This document shows positions 5,414-53,064 of a stretch of DNA of 64,000 bases, one piece after another. Location: assembly GCA_033549025.1 (NCBI GenBank), contig JAWSUS010000008.1:32001-96000 (forward strand), given 5' to 3'. The first letter of the stretch is position 1. The number at the start of each line of letters is the position of its first letter. Source of the DNA: Desulfuromonadales bacterium. Lineage in GTDB: Bacteria; Desulfobacterota; Desulfuromonadia; Desulfuromonadales; SZUA-540. The notes beneath the pieces are model-generated. The model was not told the origin of the DNA. It made no database searches and saw only the letters and a program-made list of their open reading frames with translations. Both the position numbers and the translations under genes were made by a program.

Positions 5414-5444
5414 TTACTTACCGGAAGGGGCCTGGATGTGTCGG
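5414..5444 (-). promoter_or_regulatory. Phage promoter motif upstream of baseplate J
   Basis: CCGAC-N15-CCGGTAAGTAA. Confidence 0.8.
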
Positions 5445-5456
5445 AGGCGGGATGCC

Positions 5457-6374
5457 TCAGAGCGGGCCGCGCAATTGCCAGACGGGATTGGGCTGCCCGG
5501 AGGTGTTGTTGAGGTAGTGGGATTCCTTTTTGCCCTCGAAATAGAACAGACCGATGCGGCCCGGCTCCAGGGTGGTGATCCGGTGAACGGTGCCAGCGGC
5601 GTTGTCTTCTGCCTGACTCTGGGTGTCGAAGCCCAGACCGCTCGCGGCCAGATAGAGGGCGTGCTCGGCCTGGGGCGCTTCCGTTTCTGGCGCTCCCTCG
5701 AATGTCAGGTAATGGCCGTGGTTGTCACCCGGATCGCTGACGATCCACTTGCCGTTGCGGTCCTGAAAGGCTCCCTCGATGTAGGCGACTTCGTATTCCC
5801 CGGCTGGCCAGATGAAGGAATCAGCCGGATCGGGGCTCATCTCGGCCGCGTCGAACCAGAGCAGATTGAACAGCGAGCGCACGTCTGGCGATAGGCGCAC
5901 GCTGCGCACTTGCGGCGGTTCCGGCTCGGGTTCCGGCTGGGGATAGCTGGGCGCGGGATTGTTCGGGTCTTCTCTGTAGAAGGGATAGACCAGGTTGCCT
6001 TCCACCTGGCTTTGGATCACCCGGTAGGCGATATGTACCAGCAGCAGGTTGCCGTCGATGTTCAACGGCCGGTCGTCGAAGCGCACCTCCGTGATGATCA
6101 CCCGCTTTTCCCAGCGTTTGATAGCGTCGATCACGTAATGGCGCAGCAGGCCCTTGAGGACCTCGTCGTTCTGTTCGAACACCAGATCCTTCAGCCGGGA
6201 GCCAAACTCCGGATTCATGAACCGTTCGCCGATCCTGGTGCCGAGGATCTGCAGGATGCTTTCGCGGATATGCTCGTGCTCCCGCGAGGTGGCGGTCGAG
6301 ATCTGGGTGCCGCCGGATACCGACTGAAACCGGAACGGGTAGCGCAATCCCTTGCCGAGGAAATCGTAGCTCAT
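5457..6374 (-). CDS. GPW/gp25-family baseplate protein with C-terminal extra domain
   Basis: IRESILQILGTRIGERFMNPEFGSRL motif; start moved to ATG 6374 (MSYDFLGKG); PEPEPEPP linker. Confidence 0.85.
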   Translation of the reverse strand: MSYDFLGKGLRYPFRFQSVSGGTQISTATSREHEHIRESILQILGTRIGERFMNPEFGSRLKDLVFEQNDEVLKGLLRHYVIDAIKRWEKRVIITEVRFDDRPLNIDGNLLLVHIAYRVIQSQVEGNLVYPFYREDPNNPAPSYPQPEPEPEPPQVRSVRLSPDVRSLFNLLWFDAAEMSPDPADSFIWPAGEYEVAYIEGAFQDRNGKWIVSDPGDNHGHYLTFEGAPETEAPQAEHALYLAASGLGFDTQSQAEDNAAGTVHRITTLEPGRIGLFYFEGKKESHYLNNTSGQPNPVWQLRGPL

Positions 6375-7270
6375 CAGATACGCTCCTCGCAGTCGATGCC
6401 GCACTGTCCCGAGCAGCCATTTTCCGAAGTGTCGTCGTCGATAGCTTCTCCCGGGAACCGAATCACCAGATCCAGACCGCTCTTGAGTCCCAGATGAATG
6501 GTGCCGTCCGCCTCGATCAGCCCGCCGTGGCCGGACAGGCCGCACTGGAATCCCTTGGCCCCGCCGGAGAGCAGACGAATGGCGATGGTTTCGCCGATGC
6601 CCTCGATGCGGCCGATGCCGATGATGTCGATTGGTCCGGCCGGATTGATCAGGGTGATGAACCGCTCCCGGTGATCGACGTCGAGGCGGATGCCCTCGGG
6701 CAGAACCACCGCGAAGCGTTCCGCGCCCATGGCGGTCGGCTCGATCCCGGCAGGTAGTCCGCTGATACCGGCTGCCTCCTGGGTCGAACGCAGATAGGAC
6801 TCGACCAGGGTGTAAAGGCGTCCCGGGGCGACCTCGATGGCCGTGCCGGGTCCGGAGGTGACGACCTGCTGTTCTCCTCCGTCGATAACGCAGATTCGCT
6901 GGTCGTCCGTGGTCCGCAGGATCATGCCGTCGGGCAAGGTGAAGAGCCGGTTGCCGTCCGGCAGATCCCGGGGTTCGGTGCCCGCTGGTAGTTCGACGAA
7001 GGGATAGAAATCGGGCTCCGGCTCGATCTGTACCTGCTCCAGGTACTCCTGGGTCCTGGTCTGCTGGGCTTCAAGATAGGCCTGGGCCTGGCCACGCATC
7101 GCCTCCGAGGCGGCGTGACCGGCCTCCAGCAGCGTGCGGATGCCGGAAAGTTCTTCACGGATGCCGGACAGGTGATCGCAGAGCACCCGCAGCACATACT
7201 GTTGTTCGCCGGAATCGGTCTGTTCGATGGTGGCCTGCAAGTCGGCGGGTTCTTCGGAAATCATGGACAA
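6374..7270 (-). CDS. Hypothetical protein (N-terminal coiled coil, beta-rich C-terminus)
   Basis: 298 aa ORF, GGAGG RBS, in operon. Confidence 0.65.
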   Translation of the reverse strand: MSMISEEPADLQATIEQTDSGEQQYVLRVLCDHLSGIREELSGIRTLLEAGHAASEAMRGQAQAYLEAQQTRTQEYLEQVQIEPEPDFYPFVELPAGTEPRDLPDGNRLFTLPDGMILRTTDDQRICVIDGGEQQVVTSGPGTAIEVAPGRLYTLVESYLRSTQEAAGISGLPAGIEPTAMGAERFAVVLPEGIRLDVDHRERFITLINPAGPIDIIGIGRIEGIGETIAIRLLSGGAKGFQCGLSGHGGLIEADGTIHLGLKSGLDLVIRFPGEAIDDDTSENGCSGQCGIDCEERI

Positions 7271-7276
7271 CCTCCA

Positions 7277-8287
7277 TTACATGCCGACATTGGCGGGTTG
7301 GGATTGATAGCTCATGGCGTTGACCGGCGTCACTGTTCCGGTCACGCCGTCTATTTCGAATACAGTCCAGACCGTGCCCGGGGCGTTGGGAACGGTGAAG
7401 GTCTGCTCACGGCCATCGCTCAGGAACACTTTCACCGATGCTCCGGACTGCGCCAGGCCGGTGCTCGGATTGGCGTTGCGGTTGGTGTAGTCGTGGACTG
7501 CGTAGCGGTAGACGCCGGGAATGAGCCGATGGATGGTGATGGTCTCCGGCCCGTAGGAACTGGTGTCGTCCACGTCCAATTCCGCAGCCTCGTTTTCGAT
7601 GGTGTGGGAATAGAACACATGGAAGCGACCGCCCGATGGCGTCGGTCCGGTGAGATGGGAATCGAGATCCCGGGGGTTGAGCCCCCACTGCAACACGATG
7701 CGGGCGACCTGGCCGTCGAGCTCGGGCGAAAGAACGATCTGGATATCGCCGGAGGTGTTGGGGTCGGCGTTCACCCAGCCATGCCAGGCGATGTATCCCG
7801 GCGCGGTGACTTCCACGTAATAGAACCCCTCGGGCACGTTCACCTCGAACCCGCCATAGGCGTTGGCAAAGGTCTGGAACGCCGCCGGGCCGGTTTCCGA
7901 GCGGCGGAATTCGATCAGCGCGTTGCCGACGCCGCTGGTGTTGAGGGCGTTGACCACCATGCCGCTGAGGAAGACCGATGCTCCGCTGGCAAAGTCCGGG
8001 TGGTCGGCGAACCAGGACGGATCGCGGACCTCCACCAGAATATGGCGGAGGCTGTCCCGGACCGATGATCGCCAGACCATGAGCACGGCGTTGCCGATGG
8101 TCCAGCCGCAGCGAATGACACCGTCCGGCCCGATCTCCGCAACCTCCGGATTGCTGGAGGCAAAGACCGGGGCATCCACGTCGCCGCGCAGGGAGAGCGG
8201 AACCCGTTGCTCGAACTCGCCAGCGGAGAGGCGGATGGAGCGAGGCTGAACCTCCCAGTGGCTATAGGCTGGCGTGGTCTCGGTCAT
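7277..8287 (-). CDS. Ig-like + carboxypeptidase-regulatory-like + YfaP/DUF2135-like protein
   Basis: LQWGLNPRDLDSHL...LDVDDTSSYGPETITI motif; FASSNPEVA Ig motif; start moved to ATG 8287. Confidence 0.75.
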   Translation of the reverse strand: MTETTPAYSHWEVQPRSIRLSAGEFEQRVPLSLRGDVDAPVFASSNPEVAEIGPDGVIRCGWTIGNAVLMVWRSSVRDSLRHILVEVRDPSWFADHPDFASGASVFLSGMVVNALNTSGVGNALIEFRRSETGPAAFQTFANAYGGFEVNVPEGFYYVEVTAPGYIAWHGWVNADPNTSGDIQIVLSPELDGQVARIVLQWGLNPRDLDSHLTGPTPSGGRFHVFYSHTIENEAAELDVDDTSSYGPETITIHRLIPGVYRYAVHDYTNRNANPSTGLAQSGASVKVFLSDGREQTFTVPNAPGTVWTVFEIDGVTGTVTPVNAMSYQSQPANVGM

Positions 8288-8592
8288 GAAGGAACCTCCA
8301 CCGGTGCGGAGACGCCGCCGCCATAGACCTCGACCTGGACGTGACGCAGGCTGCGCCGCTCCGGCGAATCCCAGACCAGGATCATGGCCGCCCCGGGAAC
8401 GAAGCCGCACTCGACATTGCCGCCCTCATCGACACTGGCCACGTCGGGATTGGACGATTCGAACACCGGCGCTTCGGGTAGACCACGGATCGAGAGCGGA
8501 ATGCGCTGGACGAATGGGGATCGCGAGACCCGGACCAGCTTCGGGAAAACATCCCAGTAGTGCGGTTCCTGCGGCTGTTCGAGATTGTTCAT
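8284..8592 (-). CDS. Single Ig-like (Big_2-type) domain protein
   Basis: FESSNPDVASVDEGGNV motif; paralogous to the N-terminus of the next gene. Confidence 0.7.
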   Translation of the reverse strand: MNNLEQPQEPHYWDVFPKLVRVSRSPFVQRIPLSIRGLPEAPVFESSNPDVASVDEGGNVECGFVPGAAMILVWDSPERRSLRHVQVEVYGGGVSAPVEVPS

Positions 8593-12388: not shown

Positions 12389-12419
12389 TTACTTACCGGA
12401 AGGCATGGCGAGGTGTCGG
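12389..12419 (-). promoter_or_regulatory. Phage promoter motif upstream of late control D
   Basis: CCGAC-N15-CCGGTAAGTAA. Confidence 0.8.
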
Positions 12420-13185: not shown

Positions 13186-13509
13186 TTACACCTCGACGAT
13201 CTCGAGGATCGGTTTGCCCAGTTGTCCGGCCCGGTCGAGTTCCCGCCGCATGCCGTTGGAAATGCCGTTGCCGGTGAACGCCCACACCTCGTCGCAACAT
13301 TCCATGTAGGCCGGGCCGCAGGCGATGCCCGTCTCCCGCTGCTCGGGAACGCTGTCGTCGGTGAAGGTCGGATACAGCAGATGCGGCGCGAACGGCGCGT
13401 GACCGCTTCTCATGACCTGGCGGCAAAGTGCCTCGGCGACCTTGACGTTTCGGGCTATGTCGCCCGCGAACGGGCTGCAGACAAAGATGCGTTTCATCGG
13501 TTCTCTCAA
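13186..13509 (-). CDS. DUF4406 / nucleoside deoxyribosyltransferase-like small protein
   Basis: IFVCSPFAGD...PFAPHLLY...CDEVW...ISNGMRRE. Confidence 0.75.
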   Translation of the reverse strand: MREPMKRIFVCSPFAGDIARNVKVAEALCRQVMRSGHAPFAPHLLYPTFTDDSVPEQRETGIACGPAYMECCDEVWAFTGNGISNGMRRELDRAGQLGKPILEIVEV

Positions 13510-16500
13510 AGGGTTTCGTAGTTTCTGATCTTCCGCTCCCGAAGATCCTTGTAGACGGCCTCGGCCACCTTCCGGCCATCGATGTTGGTGGTCACGCTCA
13601 GTTCCACCGGTCGGTCGGCCAAGCCATTGAGGCGCGAGAGCAGCGATTCCAGCAGTTCGCGCAGCCCCGGACCGGCTTCCTCTCCGCGCATGGGTGTCGC
13701 GGGAGCGGTGCGAGCCGGAGCGATCAACCGCTCGGAAGGCACCGTCTCGGCGAGTCCCGATTGCAGGGGCTTCGCTATCGGAGTCGGCGCGGTTGTCTTG
13801 GGCCGCTCGATCCCGGCCGGAGCCAGAGAGGCTTCTACGTTTTCCAGTGCCGGTTCCACCGCGAACGGCTGGATATAGCTCTTACTTACCGGCTCGACGG
13901 CCGCCGCGACGGTCTGCACGATGCCGTTCATCGGTTGCGTAGTCGGCGCGGCAGTGGCCATGACCGGCTGGAGCATCAGCATGGCGCTCAGGGCCTTGGG
14001 CACCAGGCGCTCGTCCAGACGCGGCACGAGACTCAGCACGCTTTCGATGATGCGTTGCCCAATCGATTCAGCGGGCTGCGCGGTCTTGAGCGGTTGCTTC
14101 TGCTCGGCCACCTGCGGAATCGGGGTCCGGACTCCCAGCATGGCGCGAGCGGAGGAGAGTAAACCGTTGGCGATCCCGGCACTGCGATCCTTGATCGCCT
14201 GAATGCCCGCGCTCGCGCCGATGGAAAGCCGCTGCCAGAGGGTTTGCCCCCCGGCCCCGGCGCTGGCAAAGATTCGACCGACAGCGCCGGGCACGGCCGA
14301 CAGCGTGGCAACGATCCGGTCGCGGACATTGACGGCTCCCGTGGCCAGAGCGTCCCAGGCATTGACCTGGGACGGCTTGAGCGCCAAGTCAGGCGTACCG
14401 CCAAGCAGGGACTGTTTAAGACCGCCGAAGATGGCACCGGCCTTGGTCGCGACGGTTTGAGCCCCGGAGGTAAACCCATCCCAGAGTTTTCCAGCCATCC
14501 GGAAGGGAACCGAGGCGGCGTCCATAAGGTTGCCGCCCGCCGATTTAATCTGCTGCCAGGCTCCCGCAGCGGCCGAGAGAATCCCGCGAGCGGCGAAGCC
14601 GAACACTTTTGCGGGCAGCGACTGGGTAAGGCTCATGCCGTCGGCGAGGGTCTTGAGCAGCGCGGAACCGGAGGCGGTCAGGCTGGCGAGTGGTCCCTCG
14701 CGGGCATCGGAGAACGGCAGCAGATTGCGCAGCTTGCCCAGGGCGTTCTTGAGCATGGTGAAGGGATAGGTCACCGCCGACCAGATCCCTTCGCCCAGGG
14801 TGATCAGCAGCTTTTTGCCCGCCTCGAAGAAAGTGGTGTCCCCGGCGAAGAAGGAGCGCACGGTGGCAAACAGCTCACGCAGGGTGCTGATAATCGGCAG
14901 ATTCAGAATCGCCTGGCCGATCTGTCCAGCGGCGTCGGCAACCAGGCGTCCGATGGAGGTGAATATCCCGGAAAAGAAATTCCAGACGCCAACCACCACA
15001 TCCCGCGCCCAGCGGAACGGGGTGGCAAGAAAATCGTAGACCGCGCCGCCAATGGCCTTCAGGCCGTCGAGCAGAGAGATATCTCCGCTCAGCACCTGCC
15101 AGACCGCATAGACGATCTTCCCAGCGGCCACGAAGGCCTCGCCGATCATCCGCACGGGCAACAGAAACTTGTAGATGAACTTGGCGGCACCGACCAAAGT
15201 GCCGACGATGATCTTGCCGACCCAGACCACGCTGCGCACCACCACCGCCAGGGCTCGCACGATGAGCGACAGGTTCCAGGCCACGATTTTCAGGGCGAAC
15301 GCCAACCCCTGCAGAAGCACACCGGCGACGGTGCCGATAACCGTGCCGAAGGTGCGCCAGGACGACCCATCGGTGGCGCTGGCGGCCACGCCGAAGATCT
15401 CCACCACCGAAAAGACCGCGCTGGCCAGCGCCGCATAGGCACTCATCAGTGTGCGGACGGTCGGTTCGAGGATGGCGCGGATGCGGCCAAAGGCATGGGA
15501 GAACGCGCCCCACAATCCGGCCATGGACTCACGAACCCGGTAATAGGCCTTGAAAACGGTGACCACGAAGCCCAACAGCCCGGCGGATTCGAGCTTCTGT
15601 GCCAGTTCGGCCGACATCTGCCCGACGCCGCCGCTGAGAGAGCCCACCAGCTCTCTGATCCCCTGGAAGACCAGCGAGACCTTGTTCCAGGCCCCGGTGA
15701 TGATCTCCTGAATGCCGCCGAAGTTGGTTTCCCAGGCGCGTTTGAGCAGATACACCGACAGGATCACGCCCGCGATGATCGCGGTAACAGGCAGAAAATA
15801 GGTCGCGACCGCCGAACCCACCCCGGCGAGCGCGGCGCTTATGGCCACGACCCCGGCCTTGATGGCGGGCAGCATGAGTCCCACCATGCCCACGGCGGCG
15901 GTGACGGCTCCGGCCACGACCAAAATGGTGCCGAGGGCCATGGATAGTCCAAGGACCACCCGGGTCACGCCCGGCATCGATTTGGCCATGCGCTGCAGGA
16001 ACAGAATGACGCGGGAGACGCCGTTGATCACCGGCGTGACCACCGGCAACAAGGTGCGACCCAGGATTTCGCTGAGGTTGGCCATCTGCTGGCGCAGGAG
16101 CAGGAACCGGGCTCCGATGTCCTGGTTCATGGCGTCGGCCATCTGTTCGGTGACCGCCGTGCCGGTCTTCATGGCTCGGCCAACCGACTGGATATTGCCT
16201 TCGAGGCTCTCCGTGCCCGCCGACATCTGCAGCAGGAACTTGACCGCCTCGTCGGAACCGAAGGCCTTCTTCAGCTTCACCTGGGCGGCGGCGTTGGAGA
16301 GATCGGGAAACTGGCGCTTGATCTCCTGCAGGATGGGAACCACGCCCTTGAGACGGCCACTGGTGTCGGTGAAGGACAGGCCAAGCTCGTCACCGGCCTC
16401 GGCCGCCTTCATGATGAACGCCTTGTACAGCGTGCCCGCCTCGGAGCCGGGCATGGTGGTCTGGAGCTGGCCGAGCACGGCGAGCTGCTCGTTCAGGGGA

Positions 16501-17141
16501 ATGTTGCTCGCGGCCGCCACCGCGCCGATGTTCTTGATGGCGTCGGCCATCTGGGTGCCGTTGGTCTTGAACGAGGCCACGGTCTGCGCCATGGCTCCGG
16601 AAAAGGCGGTCGCCCATTCCATGTCGTTCATGTCGGCCATGATGGGCTTGAAGATCCCGTAGGCCGTGGTGAAGGTGCCAACCATCTCCTGGGTGGTGGC
16701 CTTGGTCGCCTTGGCCGTCATGGCGGCCATGGAGGTGAAGACGCCCACCGCCTCGTCGCTGAGGTTGGACAGGGCCGATTTCACATCGTAGGTGGCAGTG
16801 ATGAACGCCGCCTTGTCGGCACCGGACCACTGGTTGGTGAAGGATTCTGCGGCGTCCTCGATGGCCCGGAGGTCCTGCACGCCGAGGGACGCCAGCTCGC
16901 CCAGAGCCTTCTGGGTCGCGGCGGTGGAGGCGACCAGGGCGGCGGGCACTGCCATCAGGGCCAGTCCCGCCCCCAGCATCATGGTCCCTTGCTGGATGCG
17001 GTCCAGGTTGCGGGTCATCCGCTCGCTAGCATCCGCCACGGTGGAATCGAGGTCCATCATGGAACCACGGATGCGCTGCGCGTTCTGCGAGAACGCATCC
17101 TTCATCGATACCACTATGCCCAGTCCGAGATCGCCGTTCAT
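13506..17141 (-). CDS. Tail tape measure protein
   Basis: 1211 aa, Ala/Gly-rich, TP901-like core (GSEAGT), hydrophobic central repeats. Confidence 0.92.
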   Translation of the reverse strand: MNGDLGLGIVVSMKDAFSQNAQRIRGSMMDLDSTVADASERMTRNLDRIQQGTMMLGAGLALMAVPAALVASTAATQKALGELASLGVQDLRAIEDAAESFTNQWSGADKAAFITATYDVKSALSNLSDEAVGVFTSMAAMTAKATKATTQEMVGTFTTAYGIFKPIMADMNDMEWATAFSGAMAQTVASFKTNGTQMADAIKNIGAVAAASNIPLNEQLAVLGQLQTTMPGSEAGTLYKAFIMKAAEAGDELGLSFTDTSGRLKGVVPILQEIKRQFPDLSNAAAQVKLKKAFGSDEAVKFLLQMSAGTESLEGNIQSVGRAMKTGTAVTEQMADAMNQDIGARFLLLRQQMANLSEILGRTLLPVVTPVINGVSRVILFLQRMAKSMPGVTRVVLGLSMALGTILVVAGAVTAAVGMVGLMLPAIKAGVVAISAALAGVGSAVATYFLPVTAIIAGVILSVYLLKRAWETNFGGIQEIITGAWNKVSLVFQGIRELVGSLSGGVGQMSAELAQKLESAGLLGFVVTVFKAYYRVRESMAGLWGAFSHAFGRIRAILEPTVRTLMSAYAALASAVFSVVEIFGVAASATDGSSWRTFGTVIGTVAGVLLQGLAFALKIVAWNLSLIVRALAVVVRSVVWVGKIIVGTLVGAAKFIYKFLLPVRMIGEAFVAAGKIVYAVWQVLSGDISLLDGLKAIGGAVYDFLATPFRWARDVVVGVWNFFSGIFTSIGRLVADAAGQIGQAILNLPIISTLRELFATVRSFFAGDTTFFEAGKKLLITLGEGIWSAVTYPFTMLKNALGKLRNLLPFSDAREGPLASLTASGSALLKTLADGMSLTQSLPAKVFGFAARGILSAAAGAWQQIKSAGGNLMDAASVPFRMAGKLWDGFTSGAQTVATKAGAIFGGLKQSLLGGTPDLALKPSQVNAWDALATGAVNVRDRIVATLSAVPGAVGRIFASAGAGGQTLWQRLSIGASAGIQAIKDRSAGIANGLLSSARAMLGVRTPIPQVAEQKQPLKTAQPAESIGQRIIESVLSLVPRLDERLVPKALSAMLMLQPVMATAAPTTQPMNGIVQTVAAAVEPVSKSYIQPFAVEPALENVEASLAPAGIERPKTTAPTPIAKPLQSGLAETVPSERLIAPARTAPATPMRGEEAGPGLRELLESLLSRLNGLADRPVELSVTTNIDGRKVAEAVYKDLRERKIRNYETL
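13882..13912 (-). promoter_or_regulatory. Phage promoter motif inside the 3' end of the tape measure gene
   Basis: CCGTC-N15-CCGGTAAGTAA. Confidence 0.6.
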
Positions 17142-17977: not shown

Positions 17978-18439
17978 TTAGGTCCAGTATTGGAAGCAGA
18001 TGGTGAGCTTCTCGATGGTGTTCTCGGTGTTGCCGCCTTCGAGCTCGTCGTATTCGAGCGCCTTCACCCAGGCACCGTGCAGGGTCCAGCGGCGGGTCTC
18101 GTTGCCGGTGCGGTCGTAGCGGACAACGTCGATGTCGCGCATGTAGTCGGCCGGAAGGCCGCCGGTGACGGCGTTCACGTCCACCTGTTTCTTGATCCAT
18201 TCGCGGGCCGCCTCGTCGGAGCCGTCCTGCAGGGTGCCTTTCTCGAGGGTGATGTCCTCGAACTTGACCCGCCCTGCCACCTTTTGGTCGAACATCGAAC
18301 CGGCCGGGGCAAAGGCCACTTCCTCGAATTCGGTTTTTGGCTCCTGTCCCTTGTGGAACAGGGCCACGTCGAAGCCATTTACCTCGATGGCGAATTGCCA
18401 GTTCTGGTAAAGGCTCTTGGGCATGTTTCCGCTTCTCAT
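17978..18439 (-). CDS. Tail tube protein (T4 gp19-like)
   Basis: GRVKFEDITLEKG...WTLHGAWVK...IEKLTI. Confidence 0.9.
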   Translation of the reverse strand: MRSGNMPKSLYQNWQFAIEVNGFDVALFHKGQEPKTEFEEVAFAPAGSMFDQKVAGRVKFEDITLEKGTLQDGSDEAAREWIKKQVDVNAVTGGLPADYMRDIDVVRYDRTGNETRRWTLHGAWVKALEYDELEGGNTENTIEKLTICFQYWT

Positions 18440-18454
18440 AGCCGTGTTCTCCCG

Positions 18455-19984
18455 TTAGATGATTTCTTTGAAGTCCGCGCCGGTGCTGGTCAGGATGAAG
18501 TTCAGCTCGATGAACTCCGCCGTCTTGGTCGGCTTGACGAACACGCGGGCCACCATTTCGTTGCGGTCGATGACCGCCGGGGTATTGGTCTCCTCGTCGC
18601 ACTGGAATGCGAAGTCGTAGAGGCCACCCTTGTCCTTGATGTCCTGCAGGAAGGGGTTGATCAGGCGGCCGAGGGCACGCCAGGTCTGGGGATGGTTCGG
18701 CTCGAACACCACGAAGCGGGAGGATTCCGAGATGGCTTCCTCCATGAACATCATCAGACGGCGGACGTTGATGCGATCCACGGCCGAGGGCTGGCTCTGC
18801 AGTGTCTTCTGCCCCCAGATGTTGATGCCGGTGTCGGGGAACACGGCGATGACGTTGACCCCTTCCGGATAGAGCACATCGCGCTCGCCACGGCTGGTCT
18901 TGTAGGCCAGGGAGAGCGTGTTGAAGATGCGGCCCCGGTCGATACCGGCGGGCGCGTTCCAGACGTTGGTCTTCTGGTCGCTGCGGGCGATGCAGCCCGC
19001 CACCGCGCCGCAGGGCGGCACCAGCTTCTTGCGCGAGTTGACCGGATCGCTGATCTCCAGCCAGGGGTAGTAGAGCGCCGCGTAGGAGGAGTTGAAAGCC
19101 GCGTGGCTGTACATCCCTTGTCCCTTGCGGAAGTCGACCGCTTCGAGCGGCTCCAGGTGCATGGGCGTGTCGGCGATAAACAGCAGGTCCTTGCGCCCTT
19201 CGGCATAGGCGATTCCGGCGTTGATCACCGGCACTGTCGTGACGCCGGGGACCATCAGCAGGTTCAGGGCGTCGATCTCGTCAAAGCCATAGAGACCGGT
19301 ATGCTGCGAGGGATCGCCGATGAAATCCGCATCGGCCAGATCGGTCAGCCCGTTGTCGCCGCCGCTGAGCGTGAACACGCCCAATCCTGGACGGTCGCCG
19401 GGCGTTCCCGTTGCTGTGGCCAGATCCTGGACCAGGATGAAATCCGAGCGGTCGTTGATCGCCAGCTCCACATGGTTCGGCAGCGTCTCGTCCATGCTCA
19501 GATCCTTGAACACCTCGACCACATCGCCTTTGTGCCGGACCACCAGGTTGAAATGGTTGGCCGGATCGAGAGAACCGTCCTCGATGGAGATGGAGAGTCG
19601 GTCGCCCCAGACGCCTTCGTTCACTGCTTCTATCCGCAGGGTGTCGGCGGGCGTGGCCTCCCGGTTCTGCAGCACGATGGAAGACTTCAGCGCCGTCAGG
19701 GTGTCCCGGTCGGTGGGATCGGTGAGATGGGCAATACGGGTGACATAGAGGACCGAGCCGCCGTTGTCGAAAAACGCCCGGGCGGCGTAGGCCAGATAGC
19801 TCTCGTTGATATAGGAGCCGAAACGGTTGATGAACTGCTCCCAGCTCGTCACCAGCACGGGCTTGTTGATCGGGCCTTTCTCGGCCACCCCGACCATGGC
19901 GGCCGACGAGGTCGAGATCTGCTTCACATAGAAACTGAAATCCGTTTCCCGGGTGTAAATCCCGGGGGATAGATAGGTCGGCAT
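18455..19984 (-). CDS. Contractile tail sheath protein
   Basis: YLSPGIY, AALYYPW, VWNAPAG, INVRRL, VVFEPN, PTKTAEFI. Confidence 0.95.
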   Translation of the reverse strand: MPTYLSPGIYTRETDFSFYVKQISTSSAAMVGVAEKGPINKPVLVTSWEQFINRFGSYINESYLAYAARAFFDNGGSVLYVTRIAHLTDPTDRDTLTALKSSIVLQNREATPADTLRIEAVNEGVWGDRLSISIEDGSLDPANHFNLVVRHKGDVVEVFKDLSMDETLPNHVELAINDRSDFILVQDLATATGTPGDRPGLGVFTLSGGDNGLTDLADADFIGDPSQHTGLYGFDEIDALNLLMVPGVTTVPVINAGIAYAEGRKDLLFIADTPMHLEPLEAVDFRKGQGMYSHAAFNSSYAALYYPWLEISDPVNSRKKLVPPCGAVAGCIARSDQKTNVWNAPAGIDRGRIFNTLSLAYKTSRGERDVLYPEGVNVIAVFPDTGINIWGQKTLQSQPSAVDRINVRRLMMFMEEAISESSRFVVFEPNHPQTWRALGRLINPFLQDIKDKGGLYDFAFQCDEETNTPAVIDRNEMVARVFVKPTKTAEFIELNFILTSTGADFKEII

Positions 19985-19986
19985 GG

Positions 19987-20244
19987 TTATTTCCTCCGCT
20001 TGCTGGTGGTCTTAGCCTCATCGGTTCCGACGTCCTCGGTCGCCGTGGGCTTTTCCGGCTCCGGTTCCGCGCCGCCGGTCAGGTCGGTGATGCGCACCAG
20101 GCCGCGTTTCCCGGCGGTCTTGATCTCGGCGGAGAGGTCCTTGCGGGCGATGCTCTTGCGCTCTCGCGGTCCGAGGTGGAGGGTTCCCTGGCCGGAGAGG
20201 TTGAACGTCAGGGGTTGGAACTGCAGGTTTCTGATCTCGATCAC
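19987..20244 (-). CDS. Hypothetical protein
   Basis: 85 aa, AAGGAG RBS, in operon. Confidence 0.65.
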   Translation of the reverse strand: MIEIRNLQFQPLTFNLSGQGTLHLGPRERKSIARKDLSAEIKTAGKRGLVRITDLTGGAEPEPEKPTATEDVGTDEAKTTSKRRK

Positions 20245-20256
20245 GGTTGTTCTCCT

Positions 20257-20805
20257 TTACGGTTGAATGGTTCGTTGCTCTGTCACGTCGCCGTGAAACT
20301 GGAAGGTCCGGTCCCGGATCAGCCGACCGTCGCGCAGGTCGCCGTCGTACACCGGGCAGGATTCGATACGGATGCGTCCGGAGCTTTGCCGGAGGTTGGA
20401 GAGGTTCACCCAGGCCAGACCGCCCAGAGGAACCAGTTCGGTGAGGTTCAAGCTGCCCTGGTCTGCGATGGCGATCTCCGGGTAAAGCTGAAGGAACCGC
20501 GATACCGACTCGTGAAAACCGAGCAGTTCGGCCTCCCGATCCACGGTTACCACCAGGTCGAAATCGAGGTGATAGAGCCGGGGAAACCGGCACTCCTCGA
20601 AAGTCAGCTCCGCGATATTCTTCTCGAACAGGCGGCTCTGGCTGCGGCGGAAACGGTCTTCCGTCAACTTCGGCCCCTGGAGGATGACGCTGGGAGTGCG
20701 CTGGACCTCGAACAGGTCATCCGGGAACACCAGCACGGTGTCCGAGTGGATGGCCTGCTTGGCCAGGCGGATCAGGGTTTCTGTGACGGTCTGTATCGTG
20801 CTCAA
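20257..20805 (-). CDS. Putative tail terminator / sheath-stop protein
   Basis: Position before sheath; GGAGG RBS with TTG start. Confidence 0.55.
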   Translation of the reverse strand: MSTIQTVTETLIRLAKQAIHSDTVLVFPDDLFEVQRTPSVILQGPKLTEDRFRRSQSRLFEKNIAELTFEECRFPRLYHLDFDLVVTVDREAELLGFHESVSRFLQLYPEIAIADQGSLNLTELVPLGGLAWVNLSNLRQSSGRIRIESCPVYDGDLRDGRLIRDRTFQFHGDVTEQRTIQP

Positions 20806-20829
20806 GGGACGCCTCCGTTTTCTGCCTGG

Positions 20830-20860
20830 TTACTTACCGGAAGCGCTGGCGATGTGTCGG
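20830..20860 (-). promoter_or_regulatory. Phage promoter motif upstream of the tail operon
   Basis: CCGAC-N15-CCGGTAAGTAA. Confidence 0.8.
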
Positions 20861-20864
20861 AGGC

Positions 20865-21347
20865 TCAAAGCGCGGAGCGGATCGCCTCGCGATAGTTCTG
20901 GAGGATCTGCTCGCGGTACTTCTCCATCACCGGATGCAGAAAGGGTCTGGCGGGGATGATGATGGTCGCGCCGGGATGGTTGATGGTGGCCCCGTACTCC
21001 ATGACGGCACCGATGTTCACCATGTCTTCCCCGTCCTTGTTGACGGTGCCGCGCAGCAGGCCGACGAACGCCTTGTCGGCCATGATCTTCTGGGTGATGG
21101 CGTTGACGAGAAAGCCGGTGTCGATGAGCGCCTTGCTGGAACCTTTGCGCTCGATGGTGCTTGCGGCGAGTTTCACGAAGGCTTGGCCGCCCGGGGCCTG
21201 GGAGCGTATCCCCCGCTGAATCTCGCGCACCAGAAAAAGGGCGTTGCGGATTGTGGCCTGGCGCAAGGCCGTGGCCAGGCGCGGCCCCATGCCGGTGGTC
21301 AGCTTGGCGCGGGCCTTGTCCCAGTCTCCGGTCCGCCTAACGCCCAT
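20865..21347 (-). CDS. Virion morphogenesis / tail completion protein
   Basis: LAASTIERKGSSKALIDTG, EYGA, IPARPFL motifs. Confidence 0.8.
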   Translation of the reverse strand: MGVRRTGDWDKARAKLTTGMGPRLATALRQATIRNALFLVREIQRGIRSQAPGGQAFVKLAASTIERKGSSKALIDTGFLVNAITQKIMADKAFVGLLRGTVNKDGEDMVNIGAVMEYGATINHPGATIIIPARPFLHPVMEKYREQILQNYREAIRSAL

Positions 21348-22493: not shown

Positions 22494-22511
22494 CTCACGT
22501 CACCTCCCGGA

Positions 22512-23375: not shown

Positions 23376-23393
23376 GTGCGTTGGCTCCTTGGG

Positions 23394-23756: not shown

Positions 23757-23768
23757 GGTGTTTCCTCC

Positions 23769-26252: not shown

Positions 26253-26268
26253 AGGGTGACGGTGAATT

Positions 26269-38240: not shown

Positions 38241-38271
38241 TTACTTACCGGAAGCGGCGGCCAACTGTCGG
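38241..38271 (-). promoter_or_regulatory. Phage promoter motif upstream of small terminase
   Basis: CCGAC-N15-CCGGTAAGTAA; its final TAA is the stop codon of the HTH gene. Confidence 0.78.
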
Positions 38272-38522: not shown

Positions 38523-39293
38523 TCAATCCTCCACTTTCTTCATCCACGGCTGCGGCACGTCCGGGTTGTAGAACCGCAGCGTGCTGGGACGCCCGGACTT
38601 CGGCCCGTGGATAATTTCGATAGAACGCTCGGTGACCTCGCCAATCTCCTGATCGCCATCGACGAAGCAGACCAGGCCGTAGTCCTCGCCGCAGGGAAAC
38701 CGGAAGCGGCCCTGGTTCTGATAGAGGCGTGCCTCGGACCAGCCCTTGGCCATGGCCTCCTCACGGATGGCGTCGACCTTGGCGACAGCCTGGGAAGTCA
38801 CCGGCTGCTTACATTTCCAAGCTTGGTTCCCGGGATAAATCCAGTCCTTTCTGGGAGTTTCGACGGGTTTCTCCTGGGACTCGGGACGAAGCGCGGGTGG
38901 CCGGTAGTTCTTCGGGGAAAAGGACTGCAGGACCTCCTGGAGGCTTTCCTTGCCGAATTCCCGGATGGCCAGCTCCTGCAGGGCGTTGAATCGCTGCCGC
39001 AGCGTATTCCAGGCATCCTCGGGGAGCTTTCCGGCCTTGTGCGCGGCTTGGGCGGTGACCATGCGGGAACGTAGCCAGGCAAAGTATTCAGGCGACAGAC
39101 GGCGACACAGCGTGCCGTCGATCTCCATGTCTTCAGGCCAGTCGCGTGCGTCTTCGATCTCGTGGACGTCGAGCCCAGTGGAGACATAGATGGCGGGCTG
39201 CGGTGGTTGCGGTGGTAATAATGGGACTTCACATCCGGCCGAGGCGTCCTGACCTCCGGCGGTGTGCTTGATCATGGTTTTCAGAAGGCTCAT
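38523..39293 (-). CDS. Hypothetical protein
   Basis: 256 aa ORF downstream of a motif copy, GGAG RBS. Confidence 0.65.
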   Translation of the reverse strand: MSLLKTMIKHTAGGQDASAGCEVPLLPPQPPQPAIYVSTGLDVHEIEDARDWPEDMEIDGTLCRRLSPEYFAWLRSRMVTAQAAHKAGKLPEDAWNTLRQRFNALQELAIREFGKESLQEVLQSFSPKNYRPPALRPESQEKPVETPRKDWIYPGNQAWKCKQPVTSQAVAKVDAIREEAMAKGWSEARLYQNQGRFRFPCGEDYGLVCFVDGDQEIGEVTERSIEIIHGPKSGRPSTLRFYNPDVPQPWMKKVED

Positions 39294-39333: not shown

Positions 39334-39364
39334 TTACTTACCGGATCTGCCCTGAAACCGTCGG
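39334..39364 (-). promoter_or_regulatory. Phage promoter motif next to the origin
   Basis: CCGAC-N15-CCGGTAAGTAA. Confidence 0.8.
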
Positions 39365-48458: not shown

Positions 48459-48489
48459 TTACTTACCGGAGCCGGAGCCGATGCGTCGG
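48459..48489 (-). promoter_or_regulatory. Phage promoter motif upstream of the replication operon
   Basis: CCGAC-N15-CCGGTAAGTAA, 3 bp after the sigma stop codon. Confidence 0.8.
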
Positions 48490-48492: not shown

Positions 48493-49077
48493 TCACAGGT
48501 AGTCCTCGAGCCCGGCCTCGCGGAATGCGTCCCGCAGCTTGCCCAGCCGGTCGTAGAGGGTGGTTCTGGGGATGCCCATCTCCCGGGCGATTTCGGCCAT
48601 GGTGCTGTCGTGCAGGCGCACGCACAGATCCCGGAGCTCTTCCGGAAGCGAGGCGATGGCCCGGTCGAGATCCATGCGGATCTCATGGGCGAGGCGCTCC
48701 CTTGTTTCGCGGGTGCCGCCTCCCAGAGAGCCCTCGCTATCTAGGAAGTCGATCCGCTCGGTGGTGTCGCCTTCGCCGTTGTCGAGGGGTTCGTTGAGCG
48801 AGGTTTGGCAGAGCCGCCAGTCCCGGCATTGGGCGAACCGTGCCTCCAGAATGGTGGAGATGTGACGTTCGACGATCCGGGCCATGAAGGTGGTCTTCTT
48901 GGCCTTGGCGGGATTGAAATGCCGCATCCGCTGCAGCAGATCGATCATCAGTTCCTGTTCGAGGTCGGGTCTGTCGTCCTCGGTGAATCCGGCCTTGCCT
49001 ACGAGTTGACGTGCTTTGTGCCGAATGAGGTCGGCGGCATACTTGTCGATGCCGTCGTAAGAATTCTGTGAAACCAT
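48493..49077 (-). CDS. Phage-encoded sigma-70/ECF-like sigma factor
   Basis: Region 2-like DLEQELMIDLL..FNPAK...TF; region 4-like DLDRAIASLPEELR...MAEIAREMGIPRTTLYDRL. Confidence 0.85.
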   Translation of the reverse strand: MVSQNSYDGIDKYAADLIRHKARQLVGKAGFTEDDRPDLEQELMIDLLQRMRHFNPAKAKKTTFMARIVERHISTILEARFAQCRDWRLCQTSLNEPLDNGEGDTTERIDFLDSEGSLGGGTRETRERLAHEIRMDLDRAIASLPEELRDLCVRLHDSTMAEIAREMGIPRTTLYDRLGKLRDAFREAGLEDYL

Positions 49078-49272
49078 CGGGGCCTCCTCGGAGCGAGGAG
49101 GAGGTCCGCGTGGGTGTCGGCACGGGCCAGATCACAGGACAAAGCTGTCGCGTGGGCGAAGGGGTCGCAGGTACGCCGCCAATTGCCGTATTCGGCTCGG
49201 CGACACCCACAACAGCCTCCGCCATGCGTCCAGCTTGTTGTCCAGTGTCTAAGGGTTCAGGTCGTTACGTGT

Positions 49273-49599
49273 TCAGGCTGCCCGTTCCTCGATGCGCATC
49301 AGGAACGGGAGACCGTGCTTGATCTCGAGCAGGCAGACTTTTCCGCTGCCCATCTGCGCGAGGTGCTCCAGCAGCGCCACGACCTCTTGCTTGAGGATGA
49401 AGTCATCCTGGTCGCGCTCGGGCCGGGGACCGCTCTGTCCGCCCAGCTTGATCTCGCGCTCGATGACCGTGTCAGGGGTGAGTTCCGGTTCGCCGTCGCG
49501 GATCGGAATGTTGGTGATGCGGCCGAAGTTGATGTCCTGCATCAACTCGATGAGTCGCCGCTTCGGTGGGGTGAGGTGTGCTTTGTTGACTTGTGCCAC
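49273..49599 (-). CDS. Hypothetical protein
   Basis: 108 aa, AAGGAG RBS with GTG start. Confidence 0.7.
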   Translation of the reverse strand: MAQVNKAHLTPPKRRLIELMQDINFGRITNIPIRDGEPELTPDTVIEREIKLGGQSGPRPERDQDDFILKQEVVALLEHLAQMGSGKVCLLEIKHGLPFLMRIEERAA

Positions 49600-49657
49600 T
49601 GCCAGTCTCCTTGTTCGGAAGTTCTGGCACGCCCGGTGGCCAACCCTGTGCTGACCA

Positions 49658-49708
49658 ATAAAAAACGCCGGATCGCGCCTTCATTGGGGAAGGCGCTACA
49701 TCCGGCGT
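49658..49708 (-). terminator. Intrinsic terminator/attenuator between the QueC-like gene and the sigma operon
   Basis: ACGCCGGAT..GCGCCTT / AAGGCGC..ATCCGGCGT stem followed by TTTTTTATT on the minus strand. Confidence 0.65.
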
Positions 49709-49772
49709 CGCAATGGCTACATTTGGCGTAGCGGAAATTTTTTTTAGTTTTTTCTTCCTGGGTGGTCCCGGG

Positions 49773-51875
49773 TCATTCGTTGACTATCGGACGGACCTCC
49801 CAAACGATCTCCTCTTCGGTCCGGTAGACCGGTTCGTTGCCGCACTTGATGGATTCCTTCAGGTGGGCAGCCAGCGGCTTGTCGTACTTCTCAAGATACT
49901 TGATGGCCCGGTTTACGGCGTTCCGGAAGGCGTCACGGACGTTCTTTCGCTTGTCGTTGGATTTCCGGAGTTTGCCACCCAAGCCAACAGCCTCGTTGAT
50001 CGCTGTGGTCACCTTTGCCATTTCTTCTTCAAGCCGCTGAATCTCGGCATCGTTGTTTTCTGCCCGTGCGTCTTCAATTTCTCGAAGAAGATCGTGAGCC
50101 GCCTCCCGGTACTGCTCGATAGCCTTGCGGTCGGCGACGAAGCCGGTATCGCCCAACGGAACCCCCTGGGTGACCTGAAAACCGTCTTCGGTTTCATCAG
50201 AGTTCAGAAACGTGTTGCAGGTATTGATGGCGAACCCGCAGACGATCTCGTAGACCGAGGTTTCCTTGTTCGGCCTTGCCAGGAGGAAATTGATGTACTC
50301 GGCCCCTTTATCAACACCCGTCACGAGCACTTCGGCGTTGCCGTTAAAGCGTGCAGCCCAGACACCCCCGCGCTTCCTGAAGTAGTTGTCCGGCTGATTC
50401 TGCTCAACCGGAATGGCGGGGACGGAGATTACCGATCCCGATTCATAGACCGTCCTGAGCAGGCAGTCTCCCGGCAAGGTTCGTTGGCGAATGGCGGTGA
50501 TGTTACGGCCAACCATGGTGTCCATTGCATCGCAGACCTCCTTGGCGTGGCGCTTGTAAAGATCATAAACCTTTTGTGCCACTCTTCCGGAGTTCCCATT
50601 AAGGTAGCGGAAGACCCGACTGACCTCGCTGAATCGGGCGATAAACTGGGTGATGTCGTCCTGCTCGCGTACCTGATTGGCACGCTCCAGGTACGCGGCT
50701 GTCATGATCTTGTCTTCATCCTTGCTTCTGCTTTGGGTGAAGATATCGGCCTTATAGGCTTCCACGGGGTCATGCTGATCCGCTTTTGCCGCAATCATGG
50801 CAAAACGCCTGTCGATGCACTGCGAACACGTTCCGCAATGCGTATGGTGATTGGTCATCTCCCAGGTATGGGTGCAGGTGGTCGATGCCGCGATCATGTC
50901 CTGGCATCCGGCCTTGGTGATCACCTCGATGACACCGGCCTTGGTTTTCCAGATGTAGGGATTCTCAATCGTGAACGGTTCGCCAGCCACCAGGCTGATG
51001 ATTTCCTGAAAGCCTCGGATCACCCTGGGGTGGGTGGTGCGTGTTGCCCGGCCTCCGACTACCTGAGCGCAGACCGGCAGATTCAAACTGATGACCCCGT
51101 TTTCGTAAAAACGGACGCTTTTCAGATTGAGCATTTTTGCGATGGTCGCCCCGATAGACACATAGAGGAAGGATCGGCTGCGCTGGGTGTACTCGTAGTT
51201 CAGTCCCTTGTTCTTGTTGACCCGGACGCCGATGTGTAGCGGGGCGTTTTCCCCAGCCTTGTCGGCAATCATCTTTTCCAGTCGCCGGTGGCGCGTGTTG
51301 AGCTTCGGTGTCGACTTGTGGGTAACAAGGACGACCTTGTGTTTTTCATTCAGAACTTCATCGATGGCTCCCGCCAGCGAGTCCAGCCCACCTGAAAACA
51401 TCACTACCTGTTCCGGATAGCCGAAGAGCCGTCCGTCATCATCAAATTTCAGATATCCCTGGAATGCCTGAGCCTCTTTCAGTTTGACGAACTCGAAGTG
51501 ATAGTTGTCATCAGACAAGAAACCAAGCGTGGAGCGCAGCGCCTGGTGGATATCGTCTCCGTTCCAAAAATCTGGCTTCCGCACCGGGATGATGAAGTGC
51601 AGATCCCTGCGCCAGCCATGGCCAAAAGAATCGACGTCGTCGGCCCCTCGTGGGATGGCCTGATCGGCACTGTAAACGTAGGTGGCGATTTCGAGCAGGT
51701 CCTGGAAAGAATCAGGCACGTCCTTGCTCATCTTTTTGTGGATGTCTTCAATGCGTAGGGTGATCTTGTCCGGCCCATCCTTGCCCCAAAGGCGCAGGCG
51801 CAGATCACGGTCAGGATTTTCTTCAATCCCATCGGTCGGTGCGTTCCCACAGATGATATATCGTTTATCTTGCAT
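49773..51875 (-). CDS. QueC/QatC-like PP-loop protein fused to C-terminal winged-helix domain
   Basis: MFSGGLDSL, QRSRSFLY, TRTTHP, NPY..TK, TC, HCGTCSQCIDRR. Confidence 0.85.
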   Translation of the reverse strand: MQDKRYIICGNAPTDGIEENPDRDLRLRLWGKDGPDKITLRIEDIHKKMSKDVPDSFQDLLEIATYVYSADQAIPRGADDVDSFGHGWRRDLHFIIPVRKPDFWNGDDIHQALRSTLGFLSDDNYHFEFVKLKEAQAFQGYLKFDDDGRLFGYPEQVVMFSGGLDSLAGAIDEVLNEKHKVVLVTHKSTPKLNTRHRRLEKMIADKAGENAPLHIGVRVNKNKGLNYEYTQRSRSFLYVSIGATIAKMLNLKSVRFYENGVISLNLPVCAQVVGGRATRTTHPRVIRGFQEIISLVAGEPFTIENPYIWKTKAGVIEVITKAGCQDMIAASTTCTHTWEMTNHHTHCGTCSQCIDRRFAMIAAKADQHDPVEAYKADIFTQSRSKDEDKIMTAAYLERANQVREQDDITQFIARFSEVSRVFRYLNGNSGRVAQKVYDLYKRHAKEVCDAMDTMVGRNITAIRQRTLPGDCLLRTVYESGSVISVPAIPVEQNQPDNYFRKRGGVWAARFNGNAEVLVTGVDKGAEYINFLLARPNKETSVYEIVCGFAINTCNTFLNSDETEDGFQVTQGVPLGDTGFVADRKAIEQYREAAHDLLREIEDARAENNDAEIQRLEEEMAKVTTAINEAVGLGGKLRKSNDKRKNVRDAFRNAVNRAIKYLEKYDKPLAAHLKESIKCGNEPVYRTEEEIVWEVRPIVNE

Positions 51876-52653
51876 CGGCTCGCGCTCCTTCTTTTAGCTC
51901 GTCCTTCATCTTTTTCAGCGCGTAAGAGGCGAAGCCATTGGAAGACTCCCTGGAGATGTCACCACCTTCTTCGTACCTGTGCTTCGAAAACCAATCTGCT
52001 GAAAACTGCTCGACGATCAGGGACGCCTCTTTACAGTGCGTGTTCAGAGCCTTCTCGAATTGTCCCATTTCATTCATGGTGGCAAAGCGCTGGCCCTCGC
52101 CCAGATGGGTAGCCAGCGTTTTTGAGAGGAAGTAGTTCATGCTCTCGTTGGTCAGCTTGGCGAAGAAAGTCCGCGACAGCTCTCCGAACTCCCGCTTTTT
52201 CCCGAGCGCTGCCAGTGCGGCCCGAACATCATCTGGCCCGGGGGCGAAGAGAGACGGCAGTTTGGGTGAGATGTGCTCTACCAGGGCTCCGACCAATGCA
52301 CGCTGAGACATTTCACCGAGGTCGGATCGGCCACCGTTGGACTCCAATTTGTTATCCAGGGCCTCGGAGACTGCGGCTGCAAGATCGGGAAGGGATGTAT
52401 CCTGCGGCAGGTTGACGCCGAGGGATTGGAGATGCTCGCCGAGGTTCTCCTTTTTTGCGGCAATGGCGAGTTGCGTCATCAACCAGACCGCCTCGGTGAA
52501 CCCCTCATCGTTGAGCACGAAGGTGAATGCTTTATCGGCTGCCCGGATTGTTGCGTTTGCGATTTGGGACACGTCGGCACCGGCCGTGATCAGGCCGACC
52601 ACCTCTTTCCATGCCCTCGACCTCGGAAGGCTTCCAAGTCTGACGTGCCCCAT
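51865..52653 (-). CDS. QatB-like helical partner protein
   Basis: Overlaps the QueC-like gene start; begins MGHVRLG; helical; assignment from context. Confidence 0.55.
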   Translation of the reverse strand: MGHVRLGSLPRSRAWKEVVGLITAGADVSQIANATIRAADKAFTFVLNDEGFTEAVWLMTQLAIAAKKENLGEHLQSLGVNLPQDTSLPDLAAAVSEALDNKLESNGGRSDLGEMSQRALVGALVEHISPKLPSLFAPGPDDVRAALAALGKKREFGELSRTFFAKLTNESMNYFLSKTLATHLGEGQRFATMNEMGQFEKALNTHCKEASLIVEQFSADWFSKHRYEEGGDISRESSNGFASYALKKMKDELKEGARADAR

Positions 52654-52686
52654 GTCGATCTCCTTATTTTTCGCGACCCAGCATCG

Positions 52687-52920
52687 TTATTCGGGCCTCC
52701 TGATGACGACGATGCTTCGGGCCTTACGAGCTTCTTTCTTCAGATAGCCTTTCCGTACCAGTTGAGCGATCTGCTCGTGGGCGCTCGCGTGGCTGATACC
52801 AAGGACTTCCGACAATTCCTTCACCGTTGGCGGCAACCCCTTTTCATCGATGATTTGGCAAATGACCCTCAGCGTGTTTGCTTGTGGGTCGGTTATTTCC
52901 GATACCTTTTTCTTTCCCAT
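52687..52920 (-). CDS. LexA-type winged-HTH repressor lacking the peptidase domain
   Basis: TDPQ...GLPPTVKELSEVLGIS.ASAHEQIAQLVRKGYL....KARSI; 77 aa. Confidence 0.85.
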   Translation of the reverse strand: MGKKKVSEITDPQANTLRVICQIIDEKGLPPTVKELSEVLGISHASAHEQIAQLVRKGYLKKEARKARSIVVIRRPE

Positions 52921-52983
52921 GGCGATTGCTCCGTGTCGTAGCCACTGAGCGGATTAAGCCCAATTTATGACCACAAAATATAC

Positions 52984-53003
52984 GACCTGATGAACATCAG
53001 GTC
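52984..53003. promoter_or_regulatory. Perfect palindrome, candidate operator
   Basis: GACCTGATG-AA-CATCAGGTC in the divergent intergenic region. Confidence 0.7.
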
Positions 53004-53033
53004 AATCAAAAAAACAGGACTTCTCGTCTGATT

Positions 53034-53064
53034 CCGTCATCTTGCACGTCCCTCCGGTAGGTAA
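53034..53064 (+). promoter_or_regulatory. Phage promoter motif variant facing the recombinase operon
   Basis: CCGTC-N15-CCGGTAGGTAA. Confidence 0.65.

Follow-up and report, generated by a model that had tools for sequence, protein, structure and literature searches.

What reads a two-block DNA motif that recurs ten times across a prophage of a Desulfuromonadales bacterium, and does the prophage encode the reader? The prophage lies in the stretch of DNA analysed here (64,000 nucleotides (nt), G000:C8:32001-96000, hereafter the window), which belongs to a host genome of 78 contigs and 3.39 Mb. It carries genes for a T4-like contractile tail, capsid, portal and terminase, a replication block with primase, RecD2, ERCC4 and AAA_24 genes, and a gene for a sigma factor. 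A QatC-like gene, a gene for a 77-amino-acid (aa) LexA-type helix-turn-helix (HTH) protein, and a divergent DUF2924/serine recombinase block adjoining a transfer-messenger RNA (tmRNA) are also present. We conclude that the ten sites are probably promoters read by the prophage's own sigma factor.

The pattern CCGWC-N15-CCGGTAAGTAA matches the minus strand of the window nine times, eight times with CCGAC and once, at 13882, with CCGTC. None of 100 dinucleotide shuffles was matched (chance expectation 0.00), and this exact match bears out the nine minus-strand positions reported in an initial annotation of the DNA. A tenth copy on the plus strand (53034-53064) reads CCGTC-N15-CCGGTAGGTAA. Both CCGTC variants had been recorded, and both are present, but the second box of the 53034 copy is also changed, A to G, which that record omitted. 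When the pattern admits both variants it has ten matches in the 3.39 Mb of the genome, all ten inside the prophage window. The claimed invariance of the spacing also holds: spacers of 12-14 and 16-19 nt gave no match in the whole genome, and 15 nt is the sole spacer with matches. Against a weight matrix built from 31 motif copies of other phages, nine copies in the window reach 30-45 bits, the copy at 13882 reaches 14.4 bits and the best host site 15.2 bits. The whole-genome scan is thus in line with the earlier statement that the host part has none.

All copies are oriented along transcription and mostly lie in short intergenic gaps, and most start a few nt past the preceding stop codon. The copies had been described as standing always just upstream of an operon. 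This is true of eight minus-strand copies (all but 13882), whose ends lie about 25-92 nt before the next start codon, but the copy at 13882 is inside the tape-measure open reading frame (ORF) and that at 53034 precedes a 153-nt leader. On the minus strand, the replication block (PD-(D/E)XK, AAA_24, DUF669, ERCC4, RecD2 and primase) is headed by the copy at 48459-48489, which begins 3 nt past the stop codon of the sigma gene and is the one most often retained among relatives. The copy at 39334-39364 stands 41 nt before an ORF with no assigned function (38523-39293), the copy at 38241-38271 heads a block whose last gene encodes the terminase large subunit, and the copy at 33300-33330 lies between the genes for terminase large subunit and portal. 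Major capsid and neck genes are headed by the copy at 26222-26252, 54-57 nt before a methyltransferase/prohead-protease-like fusion gene; sheath, tube and tape-measure genes by that at 20830-20860, 25 nt before an ORF at 20257-20805. Further copies are found 31 nt before a 427-aa tail gene (12389-12419), heading a block with M15 peptidase, spike OB-fold, PAAR and gp25 genes, and 57 nt before the baseplate J gene (5414-5444), heading the baseplate J, tail I and tail-fibre genes. The plus-strand variant at 53034-53064 heads, via its leader, a block of DUF2924, large serine recombinase and 140-aa ORF. Recombinase, replication and virion blocks are all headed by motif copies, and the consensus is not confined to late genes. 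The weakest copy (13882-13912, minus strand, CCGTC) lies within the tape-measure ORF (13506-17141), 373 nt before the next ORF start, and is a candidate internal promoter for DUF7768, tube-like and wedge genes. A related prophage, in genome G366, has a copy inside the same gene, but with a different spacer, and the prophage of G338 has no motif copy inside its tape-measure gene.

The putative reader is encoded at 48493-49077 on the minus strand. It is a 194-aa sigma70-family factor (P0001) composed of sigma2, a linker and sigma4, and its residues E78 and Y175 co-vary with the motif. The protein passes the sigma70 family model TIGR02937 (55.2 bits, cut-off 42.9), and Pfam sigma2 and sigma4/sigma4_2 match it below their gathering cut-offs (22.8 vs 24 and 23.3 vs 25.7 bits). 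Its AlphaFold model has sigma2, a flexible linker and sigma4, and the top Foldseek matches of that model are sigma factors, mostly extracytoplasmic function (ECF) sigmas in initiation complexes. Pfam sigma3 (PF04539) has no match in it at E<=0.001, and absence of sigma3 is an ECF criterion. The initial annotation had called it an ECF-type phage sigma. The family model, the two domain folds and the structural matches agree with this, but sigma2 and sigma4 (Pfam stretches 16-73 and 135-178) lie 61 residues apart, above the ECF limit of 50 (PMC7826278), and no autoregulatory promoter, a typical ECF trait, was found for the gene in this prophage, no motif copy lying upstream of it on its own strand. 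Pfam, PHROGs and NCBIfam scans recognised no anti-sigma factor among the neighbours, and the host genome holds no second gene similar to the sigma. The family is large, with 875 protein clusters (50% identity) at E<=1e-30 against a profile of the sigma. Members 96-97% identical, with the same motif, occur in genomes labelled as several orders or phyla, many of them metagenome-assembled genomes (MAGs). One locus (L342:131-715 and 1403-1993) has a tandem pair of divergent sigma genes of this family, and the motif variant that follows differs between the two.

Sigma and motif occur together. Among 401 genomes of the phylum, 8 have the sigma and 393 do not; all eight sigma-bearing genomes carry the motif, in 10, 11, 9, 8, 3, 4, 7 and 11 copies. 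Of the sigma-less genomes one has 3 copies, two have 2 and 24 have a single copy, and a reversed control pattern matches 23 genomes. The sigma-less genome with 3 copies is a fragmented MAG whose phage genes sit on small contigs. Sigma and motif are also linked physically: for 37 of 57 non-redundant sigmas the strict motif core lies at the 3' end of the gene, vs 19 of 2850 random windows. The pair is not bound to one type of virion: it occurs in this myovirus with a T4-like tail, in the elements of genomes G319 and G017, and in phage WO of Wolbachia, which has a P2-like tail. The G319 and G017 elements (L283-L289, in tandem) encode a sigma 43% identical to the one studied here, a D5-type helicase domain, HK97-type head genes and restriction or defence cargo. 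No tail genes were found among the ORFs scanned in them, and they are possibly capsid-forming satellites.

Bases of the motif follow residues of the sigma. From 89 sigmas sharing less than 88% identity we used the 70 with a -10-like box 20-40 nt past the C-terminus. In these the -35 four-mer, read at a fixed offset and unscored, is CGAC in 39, CGTC in 12, CGCC in 7 and other in 12. The columns with the highest mutual information for the -35 bases are 175, 170, 173 and 176, in the sigma4 helix (range 170-176), and for the bases directly ahead of the -10 core columns 78 and 82 rank highest, in the long helix that ends sigma2. Residue 78 tracks motif position 22: arginine goes with G in 37 of 38 sigmas and any other residue with C in 32 of 32. 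Its leave-one-out prediction is correct for 66/70, the best of all columns, compared with 61/70 for the nearest relative, and on the tree 7 and 8 changes collapse to 8 joint changes. Distant motif copies follow the residue-78 rule in 51 of 51 cases, 47 of which are non-arginine with C, many of these from three large prophages. Four of five whole virus records fit, with distant copies that carry the variant of the clade 11-17 kb from the sigma copy (3 records) or share its -35 box (1). Y175 aligns with Arg171 of RpoE (chain number minus three extra residues), which sets base -31 as established by mutagenesis (PMC7776599). At this residue tyrosine goes with A in the -35 box in 40/45 sigmas and arginine mostly with C (9/12).

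Mapped transcription start sites are available for a distant relative. The only isolated phages with a match to the sigma are in Wolbachia WO records, and of the non-structural proteins encoded in the window just two, sigma and recombinase, match a WO protein. In WOVitA1 the motif takes the form GGAC-N18/19-GTATATAT and is present three times, with one spacer 1 nt longer: once past the sigma stop codon, once ahead of the tail block and once ahead of the packaging block. These copies head replication, packaging and tail blocks. The WO sigma, which was outside the 70, has R78 and Y175; as predicted, the WO motif carries G at position 22 and A in its -35 box. At least four published Cappable-seq primary start sites (supplements of PMC12558409) lie behind the drifted WO motif: 570541 (WD0590) and 571654 (WD0593) in wMel, and 1014852 and 1014725 in wAlbB (gene divergent from the WO sigma). 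By hand count GGAC begins at -35, -38, -35 and -34 from these four sites. Supplement files 2 and 4 of that paper hold one other upstream string with the search word, at -43 and without a -10 box. The tables list differentially expressed start sites, and the count of WO sites is a lower bound. A purine peak at motif positions 37-39 in 42 non-redundant copies of the motif agrees with the WO start-site positions. The WO start sites show the promoter geometry of the motif family, without telling which sigma reads it. The excerpts of PMC12558409 report only sigma70-type motifs and an unexplained TAAAAT.

Other readings of the same sites have to be weighed against these observations. The promoters might depend on a further phage protein that the sigma needs or that takes its place, as gp79 activates the sigma holoenzyme of phiEco32 (PMC8948821). 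Candidates would be a 108-aa protein encoded before the sigma gene and a ~112-aa protein encoded after it, which recur in 53/83 and 49/83 sigma-bearing loci; neither has a match in WO, which retains sigma and motif, and the co-varying residues sit in the sigma itself. We consider such a dependence unlikely; a co-factor may act alongside the sigma. The orientation of all copies along transcription, their mostly short intergenic gaps and the recombinase common to WO could also suit directional roadblocks, bound by the LexA-like protein or the recombinase, that keep lytic genes silent in a lysogen. The stoperators of mycobacteriophage L5 are directional repressor sites of this kind, with a single block and following a repressor gene. 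Each site here consists of two blocks set a constant distance apart, placed as -35 and -10 elements would be with respect to mapped start sites, and its letters track sigma residues; a LexA-like gene is found in only 5/55 sigma-bearing loci, and the promoter before that gene carries a separate palindrome. We regard a repressor function as very improbable.

Two further possibilities concern the molecule in which the motif acts and the origin of its reader. Several window copies can form a short stem around AAGUA, and most follow a stop codon by a few nt, which might indicate an antitermination hairpin or processing site in the RNA. The most shared base pair occurs in 10/42 non-redundant copies, however, and the mean folding z-score is 0.13, and a shared RNA structure was rejected on these grounds. 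Rfam gives no match, and the WO motif lies upstream of mapped 5' ends and therefore outside those transcripts. We give an RNA function almost no credence. The other possibility is an alternative sigma of the host, since some host ECF sigmas use a CGTA box to which the -10 core GGTA is similar. Against this, no host site exceeds 15.2 bits, the motif variants follow the phage sigma, and the near-identical sigma (96-97%) keeps the same motif across genomes labelled as different orders or phyla, several MAGs among them; a host reader seems extremely unlikely.

Some observations weigh against reading of the sites by the prophage sigma. Motif-like sites occur without it: genomes G058, G264 and G220 give no sigma match at E<=0.001, G264 being one closed contig, and have two such sites 69-146 nt apart before the same small ORF, adjoining type I restriction genes (the first site in G058 is a CGCC variant). 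These tandem sites may be remnants, or the islands may respond to a phage sigma. The notion of a private regulon fits the host genome, in which all 10 matches are in the prophage, but was overstated, given the two tandem copies in a restriction-modification island of the closed, sigma-less G264. As for the co-variation, the 19 of 89 sigmas without a clear box in the 20-40 nt stretch were left out of the counts, and in virus record G404 the distant copy differs from the near copy. Leave-one-out prediction from residue 175 (52/70) or residue 82 (56/70) is no better than prediction from relatedness (57/70), and for residue 175 joint changes number 17/22 compared with 14/19 in a cross-control; both links were dropped as evidence beyond relatedness. 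Only 2 independent pairs fall on well-supported branches, and therefore a sign test cannot reach significance. The relative that supplies the start sites is remote, its sigma being about 25% identical, the WO -10 region is AT-rich, with TATA-like hexamers that the host sigma70 might read, and in the copies of wAlbB position 22 is T.

At type I restriction islands a small ORF (MDIN...), the same in each case, is also preceded by one or two motif-like sites, at L298:7700, L299:10534-10603, L306:10324 and L291:8020; three of these four genomes have no sigma match.

The sites, their positions, the co-occurrence, the co-variation and the WO start sites are observations; that the ten sites have promoter activity, that this activity depends on the prophage sigma, and how the sigma is itself turned on, we infer. 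The host core RNA polymerase, together with the 194-aa sigma, would read the ten sites as promoters composed of a -35 box, (y)CCGAC, a fixed spacer and an extended -10 box, TCC-GGTARGTAA. The recognition helix of sigma4 would read the A of CGAC through Y175, and the C/G bases immediately upstream of the -10 core would be contacted by the long helix ending sigma2, through E78 and the residues next to it on the helix, 74 and 82. Transcripts are predicted to start about 5-8 nt past the last A (motif positions 36-39), and the recombinase, replication, packaging, head, tail and baseplate blocks would be turned on in one tier. The initial annotation had proposed that one phage sigma switches on the replication, packaging, head, tail and baseplate operons instead of antitermination or a late activator. 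The co-occurrence in 401 genomes, the sigma2 and sigma4 co-variation and the WO start-site geometry argue for promoters read by the phage sigma, and the recombinase operon joins the set. No antitermination or late-activator gene was recognised by Pfam or PHROGs, in a prophage with many unannotated ORFs, and the sigma may replace such a device or act with a co-factor.

The sigma gene itself would be reached from a sigma70-type promoter, and its synthesis may be gated by a leader RNA. The promoter, TTGACC-17-TATATT (52977-53005, minus strand), points into the LexA-like HTH gene, toward the sigma gene, and is overlapped by a 9-pair palindrome, GACCTGATG-TT-CATCAGGTC, which contains CCT-N10-AGG. 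The HTH gene (52687-52920, minus strand) encodes the 77-aa protein, with a LexA-type DNA-binding domain and no peptidase domain. A conserved leader of the sigma gene (49072-49248, minus strand) can form two mutually exclusive helices with compensatory changes and has a hairpin over the ribosome-binding site; in such a two-state RNA the covering of that site would control translation of the sigma. A second, diverged copy of the leader (53085-53222, plus strand) stands behind the 53034 motif, and the hairpin is predicted at the 3' end of each. The leader pattern precedes the sigma in 51/78 loci. In 46 leaders, chosen by that pattern and with structures drawn from the same sequences, both helices, which share one strand, are kept (91% and 97% of cells paired), with 16 double-sided changes each vs 4 and 6 in shuffles that ignore relatedness. 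No Rfam family reaches gathering score on leader or motif: in the window only the tmRNA does, and positions 48900-53600 give four chance-level matches (E 4.9-7.2), all of them outside the leaders. Pairing of the 5' segment of the leader with the ribosome-binding-site hairpin in a kissing loop was rejected (4.13 vs 4.13 for shuffled partners), and a reading of the leader as a ribozyme like that of hepatitis delta virus (HDV) was dropped by eye, the junction lengths being unlike those of the HDV fold.

Directly before the leader lies the gene for the 108-aa protein (49273-49599, minus strand; predicted local distance difference test score 89), a candidate co-regulator of the sigma. Its fold has no match (best Z 2.9; no Foldseek match at E<=0.001; only unnamed clusters in the Atlas), and the model shows an internal repeat, helix-strand-strand twice. 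Between this gene and the QatC-like gene (~49660-49740, minus strand) we noted by eye a long stem with a T run behind it, and two GC(T/G)AC-N7-GTAGC near-palindromes that overlap this structure; the stem was not listed by the scanner. These are possibly a terminator and operators before the sigma block. Further upstream, a cargo slot (49773-52653, minus strand) holds the QatC-like 700-aa protein (206 bits, below the cut-off of 280) and a 262-aa partner. The DUF2924/recombinase block (53034-56016, plus strand) is inverted relative to the sigma gene here; in G366, G338, G320, G319 and G017 it is co-oriented upstream of the sigma, and its promoter could there read through to the sigma gene, giving positive feedback.

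Other features of the prophage were also recorded. The ORF at 23769-26168 (minus strand), directly before the capsid genes, fuses a D12-class adenine methyltransferase to a weak HK97 prohead protease match (E 0.0013). A 1529-aa MuF fusion is encoded at 27128-31717 (minus strand); its C-terminal 1250 residues appear to be variable cargo because the G366 prophage keeps only the first ~276 residues. To the left of the tail-fibre gene (G000:C8 ~18000-29200) are a gene with a glutamine amidotransferase domain, an HTH gene, a type I restriction-modification system and an Mrr-type nuclease. No left end of the prophage was found, and no convincing repeat that could mark attachment sites was found between its right end and the rest of the contig. 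RNA runs were available as assembled contigs only, which cannot show 5' ends. Runs X1 and X10 cover all 30 bins evenly, in a DNA-like manner. In X21 and X22, from one study, contigs end at 26206 and 26193, near the predicted start behind the copy at 26222, with no cover just upstream; these ends are evidence neither way, because relatives with the short MuF gene (G366) lack that DNA.

Beyond this prophage, we tentatively suggest a wider picture, which we hold to be possible rather than probable. Temperate elements whose heads and tails are unrelated (this myovirus, the tail-less HK97-type elements with defence cargo, and WO) might form a very large family that runs its whole lytic programme from one ECF-like sigma, with a promoter predictable from a few residues and synthesis gated by a previously undescribed two-state leader, and sigma-less defence islands might keep tandem promoter variants to sense and answer the sigma. 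If true, this would name the master switch of phage WO. The reading of the ten sites as promoters of the prophage sigma would itself, if right, provide a transcription plan for a widespread prophage group (875 clusters) and a short residue-to-base rule, and would point to a specific switch for the lytic genes of WO. Pairs of sigma and promoter that are strict and variant-specific might also find use as orthogonal expression parts. That a phage sigma can have its own promoters is an established principle, and the result is thus likely to be more useful than surprising to specialists; this analysis adds the residue-78 rule and the link to the published WO start sites. A literature search, with subscription papers and bioRxiv supplements outside its scope, found no description of this motif or sigma family. 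Among the matches listed for the motif letters none concerns a phage promoter, among those listed in another search none has DUF2924, and the words 'sigma' and 'promoter' are absent from a paper on Desulfovibrio prophages (PMC6006170).

Several known systems resemble this one in part. Xpf of the defective prophage PBSX in Bacillus subtilis has a role in late transcription, at one late operon. Like the sigma described here it is a sigma-like factor of a prophage, but there are ten dispersed sites here as opposed to that one operon. Its published name is 'sigma-like prophage PBSX factor' (PMC4243946). ECF (group 4) sigmas share with this factor sigma2 and sigma4 without Pfam sigma3, strict two-block promoters, and an Arg171-equivalent that is the top co-varying column for a -35 base (PMC7826278, PMC7776599). 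Unlike them, it has the 61-residue gap between sigma2 and sigma4 and no upstream autoregulatory copy here, and its strongest link, at residue 78, lies about one helical turn beyond the position equivalent to Asn84. Phage ECFs are not captured by the ECF classification (PMC7826278).

The coliphage phiEco32 factor gp36 is likewise a phage sigma that serves non-early genes via its own promoters, but the promoters it reads have one element only, tAATGTAtA, it has no region 4, and gp79 activates it (PMC8948821). The sigma described here has sigma4 and a -35 box. The closest tested system is that of Salmonella phage 7-11, whose sigma SaPh711_gp47 has eight late promoters, GTAAtg-(16)-aCTA; the authors of that work predict further phage sigma/promoter pairs (PMC8948821). 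Compared by description, both systems have a phage sigma70-family factor, a host core polymerase and a bipartite consensus with a fixed spacer repeated 8-10 times before virion genes, and the trait typical of 7-11 gp47, a repeated bipartite consensus before virion genes that is absent from the host, is found in this prophage as well. Phage 7-11 is lytic, uses its sigma for late genes only and has another consensus. The prophage described here, in contrast, is temperate, carries the motif before replication and recombinase genes too, and has a sigma/motif pair common to unrelated virion modules.

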